64,000 nucleotides of DNA, taken from Gordius albopunctatus (lineage: Eukaryota). The notes under the pieces are model-generated. The model was not told where the DNA came from. It saw only the letters and a list, made by a program, of their open reading frames with translations, and ran no database searches. The position numbers were made by a program, and so were the translations under genes. Shown one piece after another: positions 39,301-42,300 of this stretch (within the stretch, counting starts at the first letter, position 1; each line of letters opens with the position of its first letter). The DNA is taken from assembly GCA_964276515.1 (NCBI GenBank), contig OZ193909.1, positions 15,996,001 through 16,060,000 on the forward strand. The letters run 5' to 3'.

Positions 39301-42300
39301 TTGGCTTTGACTTTTTGCAATTGATCCAATTGTTCACCCATTTGGGCGACTGCATCGTTGTGTTTTTTGCGAAGGGCATTTGTCGTGGCTTCATGCTGCA
39401 TATGGGATTCTTCTAAATCTCTTCTTAATTTTTGAATCTCGGCTTCTCGCTTTTTGTTTAAATCAACTTGGGCAGCACTAGCACCTCCTTGTTCTTCCAG
39501 ACGCTCGGTTAAATCATCAAGTTCCCTAGCCAATTCAGCTCTTTGTTTATCAACCTTTATTATAACAAATTGCAAAATTTGTGATTATAAAGAATATGTT
39601 TGCATTCATTAAAATCAATTGCTTCAAAGCAGCATATGATCTGTTTTAATTTATTTTACCTTCGATCTGGCTTGTCTTTCAGCCTCCAATTCTTCCTCCA
39701 ACTCTTCAATACGGCTCTAATTTAAAATACAAGTGATTAAAAAAATAATATATTTATGGTTGTAAAAACTGGGAAGTAGTAAACTTATAGCAGGGTCTAA
39801 ATATGTTTGCAAAGTCATTGACTAATTTAGGTCGGTATACAACCGCCGCTAAGTTAATTTTAACTATAATAAGACCGAGAGCAGAATTTTATACTTCGAG
39901 CATGGATCGCTCAGTACGCGGCAAAATTTGCCCGAATTCAACTTCTGAACTTTCTCGAATAATCCTCCTACTACGCGTACTTAATCTCGGAGACGGCGAG
40001 GCATACATGTAATCACGACCTGGGATTCGTAAATGCTCTAATCTCGGACTATATTCCGACCCAAAATAAGATGGATAGTGAGAATATTGGGAATAGCCAC
40101 CACCCCCTAGCCCCCCATAATAACCAGAACCAACTCCAGTATAGCCTATGCTATCTCCATAGTGTTGAGTTGTAGTTGTATTAATCCTGGAAACAGGAGC
40201 TGGGGGCTTTTCTACTTTGGGGGATTGTTTGGCATTCACTCCCATGACTTGCACCCCTTCATCAGTCGCTCCTGGGCTTGTAGTGACCGTGTTAATCCCA
40301 TTAGTAGCTATTACGTTAGTAATAGATGATTTGCGACCGTTGCCATTACCATTTCCATTAGTATGATGACCATTACCGTTAGCATGACCATTTCCATTGG
40401 AACGACCATTGGTCACGTGTGCGCCGTTTTGGCCTATAGTCGTAGGTGCTAAAACAACATCTACAGGTGCGTCAGATTTAACATTTGGGTCCATTGTAGC
40501 GTGAATTTAGAATAATTTAGTATTATAAATTCAATGCTCGTAGAAATGATAGAAAGTCGTTAAATCCTTAGCTGTTAGAAAAGGTGAATGTTGAATATAA
40601 AATGATTTCTATTTACAGGATATGTACAAAAATAATTATCAAAATTTCGTTCCTATTTTAATCCTATGGCAGTGTTTTGGCGCTGAAGAATGTTTATTTG
40701 GGTTTAAGAATATGTGAGAGTTGAATGATATATGATGATCTAAGGAACGCTGTTTAGAGAAATACGCGGAACAATTTGGATATGTACATCAAGAAAAAAG
40801 TTCAAAAAATGCAAGTTTGGTAAAACTTGATTGTATATTGGAAGCGAATGAGTTTTTTTTGCATTAATTGTATTATCAATGTAAAAAATGGTATCAAAGT
40901 TAATGTTTTTTATACGTTTCCAAGGTTAAAAAGAGATACAGTATAAAGATAGTTTTGCTTATGTTTATTTCGGAGAAATAGATTGTGTAATACATAAAAA
41001 ATGCTAGCACTATGATACAGGAAGAAGAGATGCTACAATAACGTACTCTGAGGTATCTAAATGCGCTAATGTATAACAGTTGCTTGAAAACCAACGCTAT
41101 TCATCCATGAATGCAATGATAAAACACCCCTAACCATATGCTCAAACTATTTAAACCTACACAAATATAATATTTGAAGGTTTAATCATTACTATGATTT
41201 TATGGAACACGATTCAAAACACTTCTGTTTAACGTTTCTTAATATGGAAAAGGGCATTGAAAATTTGGATTGATCGTTTCATGCACAGTGACGTCTCATC
41301 CTAATTATGTTTGCCTAAAGATTTACCTTGCTTTTTATAGATTTATTTATAAAGTTGATGATTATTTTATATCCACATTTATTCTACCATATTTATTCAT
41401 TATATCCACAGTATATAAGAGTCAATATCGGGCCTACAGATTATTTTAACATTTTACGCTTTATCTTGATTTATATTAATCACTTTTATTATGATTATAA
41501 CGGTATTTCAATTCAAATTTGTTAGATAAGCTTTGAGGGTTTTATATATTTTTTTCTTTAACTTTTTAAATATGACATAAATAACAATAAACTCGGTATA
41601 CAAAACAGTTTAGATAAGTCGTATACTTAAGTCCTTAAATTGTTATTTATCAGAGACCAGAAAAGCACGACCTGACCCGCTGCCGAACCTGCCTGTCCGG
41701 CCCGTAAATTTAGATTTTGGGGCAGGCACCATATCAAGGTTTGGGCGATTCGGGCTAAATGATATTATTTTGTCACTTTTTTGTTTGATTGTATAATATT
41801 TGTTTACCTATCCTATAAATTTTTGGTAAATATAACGATATTAATGCCTAAAATTTAAAAAATATCCTTTCTGGTCGGACATTTCAGGCAGCTCTAATAA
41901 TTCGGGTATGGCCGGGTCGACCTTAGAAGGGTTCGAGCGGGCACGGGCGGATAGTTTCGTAACAAAATCAAACCGGGCCGTTTTAGGGCAGAGTTTTTTT
42001 AAATAAATCTGAGCTCTAGTTTAAATGTTTAATTGGTTTTAGATTGAGATGGATTTTTAAAATTATCCTATGTTAAAATCAAAGATTAAAAGATAACCAT
42101 CACATCTCTAGGCCAATGTAATCATAATAAAATATTACACGCGTGATTACATGTATACCTGTAAATAATTTTGTTTTTAATCGAAAGGTAGAATGATAAA
42201 AACTAGATCTAAGTTAAATTCATAATAACAGTTAACTTTTTTTACCTAGAGGAGCAACGCACGTCAAATTATAATTAAATTACTTGTAATTCTTTAATCT

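Follow-up and report, generated by a model that had tools for sequence, protein, structure and literature searches.

Myorod, also called catchin, is described in the available passages of papers from 2015 to 2026 as exclusive to, or specific for, molluscan catch muscle and as the foremost candidate for the link that holds force in catch (PMC12040844, PMC4410989). In these same accounts, mussel myorod lies on the surface of the thick filament in an amount equal to that of myosin and binds actin and myosin depending on its phosphorylation, with Thr141 as the target residue of smooth-muscle myosin light chain kinase (PMC12040844, PMC4410989). Six mollusc catchin heads are aligned in Fig. S3 of Kollmar and Hatje 2014, where the N-termini vary freely and two conserved blocks stand at the end of the head (PMC3912159). 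The upstream block reads R.[YF]RG.SP..[LIV]E.IA.HP; the second reads [KRHI][LI]SA[RK]SK[KR][VI][IL]R[DE][TA][SA][DE]L and is followed by 12 residues ending in [LM]LE and then by a 14-residue segment of the rod (PMC3912159). By the passages available, that survey covered 116 metazoans, among them no nematomorph, and named four mollusc genes with a catchin exon. The literature searched, which included available parts of PMC3912159, PMC12040844, PMC4410989, PMC13762225 and PMC5963113 and covered few subscription journals, yielded no catchin or myorod outside molluscs, so that a report in another phylum may exist.

Here we describe a window of 64 kb (the whole stretch of DNA analyzed) that contains the gene for a muscle myosin heavy chain (Mhc), with an extra open reading frame in the gene's largest intron. 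This frame is very probably a real coding exon of a headless myosin rod isoform. Common descent with mollusc catchin, in which the exon would be a genuine catchin exon retained since the ancestor of protostomes and giving a headless rod protein of 1,051 residues, is the reading that we favor from sequence comparison, at a probability of roughly 0.7. The parts of the Mhc gene that frame the exon are as follows (window positions).

36330..49241, minus strand: muscle Mhc gene, 38-exon model of 1,974 aa, modelled against Gordionus Mhc P0002 (1,726 identities, 87.4%)
42284..42430, minus strand: exon 24, the last rod exon ahead of the large intron, ending ...KIKELQ in phase 0
39717..42283, minus strand: large intron as spliced from the full-length transcript, 2,567 nt, unbroken in contigs X1 (record 1) and X2 (records 10-11), which are possibly the window's own source and so not independent support
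39660..39716, minus strand: exon 25, the first shared rod exon, starting in phase 0 with a 14-residue segment (SRIEEL...)

The 37 introns of the Mhc model were found to have a median length of 49 nt and a range of 39-2,567 nt, the longest being the one between KIKELQ and SRIEEL. An earlier note on this DNA had placed a 2.57-kb intron between KIKELQ (42284) and the exon starting at 39716; its length was measured as 2,567 nt, with both ends in phase 0. The same note gave about 40-80 bp for the neighboring introns, which was roughly right, as it holds for one flanking intron (49 nt) and not for the other (105 nt). Two introns of the model, 43301-43255 and 37188-37111 (minus strand), are of the GC-AG type, and the N-terminus (49241-49100, minus strand) has about 25 extra residues before the usual start region, as does that of Gordionus.

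Kinship of the gene was assessed by protein comparison. One rod exon shared 96% identity with the Mhc of Gordionus sp. m RMFG-2023 and at most 75% with any other protein among the 120 matches listed of 1,260, while the whole Mhc model was 87.4% identical to Gordionus compared to at most 59.6% for 31 other full-length myosins, a set that contained no mollusc Mhc. The taxonomy of Gordionus is Ecdysozoa, Nematomorpha. The animal is thus very likely a horsehair worm, from a different species or genus, and hence an ecdysozoan rather than a mollusc. By this kinship, contamination with mollusc DNA was rejected. An assembly artefact was likewise rejected, as the region is contiguous in the X1 and X2 contigs and in those of a related organism (organism B). 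The large intron also contains a high-copy repeat at about 41600-42000, with a related piece near 47520; summed contig depth over this repeat was 5,665 versus about 200 in X1, and no continuous alignment crossed it in the organism B contigs. A transposon origin of the open reading frame was rejected, as the frame lies at single-copy depth and the repeat sits elsewhere in the intron.

Alternative exons were detected elsewhere in the Mhc gene. The P-loop/loop-1 exon (cluster 2 of PMC3912159) comes in three alternative versions that share one phase, at 47977-47863, 47269-47176 and 46862-46754 (minus strand), and Gordionus isoforms differ in the same segment. A 22-nt pair with 82% complementarity, 47141-47162 with 47941-47962, would link exon 2a to the intron just after exon 2b and is a possible selector pairing for the alternative exons. 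Two versions of the switch-1 exon (cluster 3) lie at 46457-46365 and 46116-46021 (minus strand) and are either an old feature or a recent duplication. In the available text, duplication of the cluster-3 exon is listed only for annelids and molluscs (PMC3912159), and thus the gene may keep other old features. Downstream of Mhc, two long single-exon frames that look leucine-rich-repeat-like by eye, 28646-31462 (minus strand) and 31678-32628 (plus strand), are arranged head to head about 200 nt apart, and a GC-richer patch at about 34590-35160 (minus strand) has stop-interrupted frames and by eye resembles a decayed retroelement fragment.

The open reading frame and its predicted junction to the rod are these.

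39895..40494, minus strand: catchin-like exon, coding part, 200 aa; Asn/Gly/Thr-rich at residues 1-110, Gly/Tyr-rich at 111-145, and with an Arg/Ser/Glu-rich conserved end at 146-200
39717..39894, minus strand: predicted intron of the headless transcript, 178 nt, GT...AG, phase 0, with a weak donor

The frame begins with an ATG at 40494 and extends for 200 codons (600 nt) to 39895, where it is followed by GTATAA, the GT (39894-39893) being in phase 0; this confirmed the ATG-initiated 600-bp frame, with a donor fitting the next rod exon, that had been proposed from the sequence. Read-through past the GT gives Val and a stop (TAA at 39889). The chance of an open frame of 200 codons was estimated per start at 1.5e-8 for the stop frequency of the intron and at 1.4e-5 for the exon's own GC content, which is 45% compared to 30% for the remainder of the intron. 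The donor at 39894 is weak, with only 3 of the 37 model donors scoring lower and three other in-frame GT sites within the frame scoring higher. When spliced to exon 25, the 200-residue head would be followed by 851 shared rod residues to give a predicted product of 1,051 residues and 119 kDa. The composition of the head is compatible with disorder, and single-sequence AlphaFold prediction of the head alone, a weak model without an alignment, returned a mean pLDDT of 44 and no secondary structure. A Pfam search with the head gave only a glycine-rich match below the cut-off (E 0.012).

We compared the frame to that of organism B, represented by contigs from runs X4 and X6 of one study. The contigs span the frame in one piece with 36 (X4) and 35 (X6) listed changes, a count that leaves out four differences near the ends of the stretch, including the region of the ATG and the GT. 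The single indel was an in-frame deletion of 6 nt in the Asn-Gly repeat, weak evidence by itself, and the stop-free state of the frame was not significant alone (p 0.30). By contrast to these, codons 11-191 showed 19 steps that were silent and 17 that replaced a residue (dN/dS of 0.27; p 1.6e-4 by Fisher's test); when the same types of change were placed at random in 20,000 trials, 10.0 +/- 2.6 silent changes were expected versus the 19 observed (p 0.0016). Codons 11-110 gave a dN/dS of 0.33 (p 0.009), and in codons 137-191, at the motif end, all 3 changes were silent. As a control, the listed changes that fell in constitutive Mhc exons, a small subset of the alignment rows, were silent in 10 of 10 cases. 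The non-coding sequence at 40528-41391 (864 nt) also aligned in organism B, showing 58 differences, and the intron piece 39742-39839 gave no alignment. Thus, the frame is protein-coding and under recent purifying selection that is strongest at the motif end. Loss of the frame in relatives had been named beforehand as an outcome that would speak against a headless isoform; organism B keeps it, at the dN/dS of 0.27 given above.

The conserved end of the head was next compared to the mollusc rows of Fig. S3, as far as these were available.

39940..39987, minus strand: catchin motif, head residues 170-185, 16 residues, with 12/16 positions in the mollusc class

The remaining 4 positions are A/T, K/R, T/S and L/V exchanges, and the motif falls within the segment free of replacement changes in organism B. 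After the motif the worm head continues for 15 residues that end in MLE, followed by the 14-residue start of exon 25, compared to 12 residues in all six molluscs; the junction common to both is [LM]LE followed by [AS]RIEEL. A 16-column motif written from the mollusc rows only scored 58 at residues 170-185, versus best scores elsewhere of 33 in 127,906 six-frame windows of the 64-kb stretch, 42 in 195,282 windows of fetched myosins and 42 in 481,327 windows drawn from 80 further myosin loci, and none of 20,000 shuffled versions, made from the head or from its last 64 residues, reached 58; these scores are optimistic because the 16 columns were fixed after the match had been spotted by eye. The upstream mollusc block was matched faintly, by eye only in SP, LE and a Pro/Tyr pair. 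Ser182 of the head (39951-39949) aligns with myorod Thr141, which was placed by counting along the Mytilus row (156 residues, the same total as in PMC12040844 and PMC4410989; RD-T-SDL position). Argopecten has Ala at the Thr141 position, and therefore the phosphosite is not invariant. The length of the shared rod is also similar, 851 residues here versus 830 in catchin.

These comparisons bear on three points of the earlier note. Its view that catchin joins the rod in about this region was borne out, with the junction at the same residue as that of catchin in the rows available in Fig. S3 (PMC3912159). Its motor-less rod protein likewise gained support from selection on the frame and from the predicted rod junction at catchin's residue. 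By contrast, the head that it could not recognize has a basic Ser-rich end that matches the conserved catchin motif.

The rival that survives best is a real headless-rod isoform that is independent of mollusc catchin, in which an old S2-hinge intron was reused and a basic kinase-site motif converged; we regard this origin as improbable, but not negligible. Sites for kinases that recognize basic residues carry low information. The intron at the junction is widespread: in a metagenome scan for catchin exons in other animals, for which the best 80 of 432 myosin loci were kept, 16 loci had an intron at or beside the junction (79-1,089 nt by tblastn measure), 55 were contiguous across it (cDNAs or intron lost), and 9 were without the upstream exon. 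The junction intron is thus old and common to other animals, and a shared junction alone could therefore arise twice. The catchin motif was detected in 0 of these best 80 of 432 loci, which by sequence look mostly fish, crustacean and rotifer and therefore give little information on annelids, priapulids and nematodes. Most of the head, moreover, shares nothing with the mollusc rows available, and homology comes without an E-value because no search with the head returned a protein, nor did any return a mollusc catchin: protein databases gave no homologue among 1,098 and 208 candidates, with mollusc catchins not surfacing either; the last 64 residues gave none at E<=0.001 among 1.84 billion representatives; and an Atlas search with the head gave no match. 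Against convergence stand the 12/16 agreement in class, the near-equal distance to the junction and the same MLE end, and the mollusc heads themselves differ freely upstream of the block in the rows available.

Very unlikely, in our judgment, is an independent single-exon gene of 201 aa that is nested in the intron on the same strand and ends at TAA 39889. The frame does have its own ATG and in-frame stop, its donor is weak, purifying selection suits any protein, and 45 nt past the stop still align in organism B. Such a gene would, however, end exactly where the catchin head ends, one codon past a GT that is in the phase of exon 25. No AATAAA or ATTAAA was found in the 172 nt after the stop, which is weak evidence, as the Mhc stop is also without one within 500 nt.

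There is only a slim chance that the exon is a decaying or unexpressed catchin relic, or that it was acquired sideways from a snail host. Gene transfer from host to horsehair worm is known, and horsehair-worm larvae encyst in snails. The weak donor would suit a relic, as would the Gordionus annotation: in the NCBI cluster for Gordionus Mhc, which consists of two full-length isoforms plus two submitter models, no head-plus-rod isoform was found, nor was one among the matches listed, though the NCBI annotation of Gordionus has isoforms. Both submitter models end at ...KIKELQ plus 18 residues, i.e., at the same intron; in favor of the catchin reading, this is as expected if the Gordionus gene is interrupted there too, a hint that is not proof of an exon. 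Selection on the frame is, by contrast, recent and purifying, strongest at the motif end, and the exon occupies the homologous intron in the myosin gene of the worm itself and has diverged far from the available mollusc rows.

As to splicing from upstream, an in-frame TAA at 40509-40507 blocks all acceptors ahead of the frame, and an exon started at the acceptor at 40571 reads Leu-Arg-Ile-stop in phase 0, in agreement with the earlier statement that the nearest strong upstream acceptor runs into an in-frame stop. Among 104 AG sites at 42250-39901, 3 are open in phase 0 to the donor, all of them inside the frame and in a purine-richer context than the model acceptors. Least likely of all is that the frame is a cassette exon or belongs to a longer myosin transcript instead of being an alternative start: the gene does use alternative exons elsewhere and those three AG sites (40206, 40035, 39909) would yield in-frame inserts, but the stop blocks every upstream acceptor, the selected codons 11-110 lie mostly upstream of the three sites, and a proline-rich insert would be expected to break the S2 coiled coil.

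Taking the catchin-like exon as the head of a rod isoform started within the gene, we searched the intron for its possible beginning.

41327..41371, minus strand: candidate internal promoter and short non-coding leader exon, with TATAAA at 41371, 41351 and 41339 and a donor at 41327
40495..40571, minus strand: candidate 5' untranslated part of the exon, behind an acceptor at 40571

The donor at 41327 scored 10.1, which equals the best model donor and ranks 1st of the 113 GT sites in the intron; TATAAA is common in DNA of 70% AT. No upstream ATG was found in 40700-40495, and the context of the ATG, ACAATGG, is as at the main Mhc start. The earlier note had spoken of an internal first exon. An internal coding exon is upheld, but it may not be the first exon in the literal sense, as three TATAAA boxes followed by a strong donor at 41327 suggest a short leader exon without coding sequence. 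We propose that a promoter near 41340-41370 would give a transcript of the short leader, the head exon and exons 25-38, with the leader joined 41327->40571 and the head spliced 39895->39716 onto the shared rod exons, and that the product would be a myosin rod without a motor. The contig alignments, which run across introns, showed no 39895->39716 joint in the 15 of 53 rows listed. By analogy to mussel myorod, this rod may assemble together with myosin on the thick filament's paramyosin core, and its flexible head may project towards the thin filaments as a phospho-switched tether, in which phosphorylation of Ser182 by an enzyme belonging to the myosin-light-chain-kinase type, e.g., twitchin, would switch the binding of actin and myosin. 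Horsehair-worm muscle is rich in paramyosin. The literature searched gave nothing on this richness, and the available passages of PMC2109740 do not name nematomorphs. A catch-like role in the worm's muscle is a tentative suggestion, made by analogy, that we hold at well below even odds.

The large intron also has the potential to form a long-range RNA helix with the catchin-like exon.

42142..42160, minus strand: helix arm A, 19 bp (in the sense RNA, 18 Watson-Crick pairs and 1 G-U), lying 123 nt past the exon-24 donor
39999..40017, minus strand: helix arm B, within the catchin-like exon, 104 nt before the exon's donor

The helix has an energy of -28.8 kcal/mol, which 0 of 1,082 block-wise dinucleotide shuffles reached (mean -17.6, sd 2.4, best -28.1), and it ranks first among the inverted repeats of the 13-kb gene; its core is palindromic. 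Organism B was aligned down to 42138 and has no listed change in arm B. In the full-length pre-mRNA the helix would loop out 2,124 nt, leaving 123 + 282 nt around it, and could in this way mask the exon and leave about 400 nt between donor and acceptor, a shortening that may be useful in a gene with introns of about 49 nt. The short transcript is without arm A, and its donor would therefore be free. We give about even odds that the helix loops the catchin-like exon out of full-length myosin transcripts. Arm A opens at an acceptor-like AG (42160-42147, minus strand) whose phase-0 reading is Val-Tyr-Met-stop, and the Gordionus submitter models end in KIKELQ-VYT.... A tail-less motor isoform from that AG is conceivable; plain read-through of the GTATAC donor explains the Gordionus ends equally.

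Taken together, the comparisons make it likely that catchin/myorod exists outside molluscs, in which case its origin would lie in the ancestor that molluscs share with worms and insects. If the homologue is true, the origin of catchin moves back to the protostome ancestor, and its working part would be marked out by what has been conserved since then, namely the basic block of 16 residues and the Ser/Thr at position 141. It would also provide a natural test: if myorod makes catch, then horsehair-worm muscle should show catch; if not, an older structural role in paramyosin-rich filaments would be indicated. The full scenario is speculative, and we think it less probable than its failure in some part: catchin would be ancestral to protostomes, kept with its phosphosite in horsehair worms and lost in arthropods and nematodes, the body-wall muscle would have a catch-like, low-energy way of holding, and the RNA helix would pick the motor or the motor-less product.

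Among known systems, the proposed helix is closest to the docking/selector sites of Dscam and Mhc in arthropods, where long-range pairing within the RNA directs splicing. As in these, part of an intron would pair with a remote part of the pre-mRNA, and the gene has alternative exons; unlike in these, the helix would keep an internal start exon out of the long transcript, and it consists of a single pair of arms with no compensatory change seen. For the headless product itself, Lottia Mhc8 is similar in having a rod-only product that starts at the same residue and different in being a separate duplicated gene without a unique head, by the available description (PMC3912159). Myosin rod protein of Drosophila is likewise a motor-less rod from an internal start in an ecdysozoan muscle Mhc gene, but it is about 260 residues longer, is made by extending the exon that follows the light-chain domain in the 5' direction, and in the text available has an N-terminus that is not conserved even among insects (PMC3912159). 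A start of that type was not found here, as the intron before the corresponding exon of the worm is 47 nt and the catchin-like exon lies about 280 residues further on; with its junction at a different place, the Drosophila exon is therefore not the same as the worm's.

The closest resemblance is to catchin/myorod of Mytilus, Argopecten, Crassostrea (Mhc2), Aplysia, Biomphalaria and Lottia (Mhc6), which, in the sources as available, also has one long unique exon within an Mhc gene (PMC3912159, PMC12040844, PMC4410989). By sequence fit, the exon would in both cases be joined in phase before a 14-residue segment beginning with [AS], with about 830-850 rod residues shared, and the predicted head has the same plan of a variable low-complexity N-terminus, a conserved basic block, an [LM]LE end and a phospho-acceptor at the Thr141 position. 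The worm differs in that its host is very likely an ecdysozoan compared to the mollusc hosts of catchin, in that its head of 200 aa is built of Asn-Gly repeats and a Gly/Tyr tract while the mollusc heads are rich in Ser/Thr/Pro/Glu, and in that 15 residues rather than 12 separate motif and junction and the other conserved block is faint.
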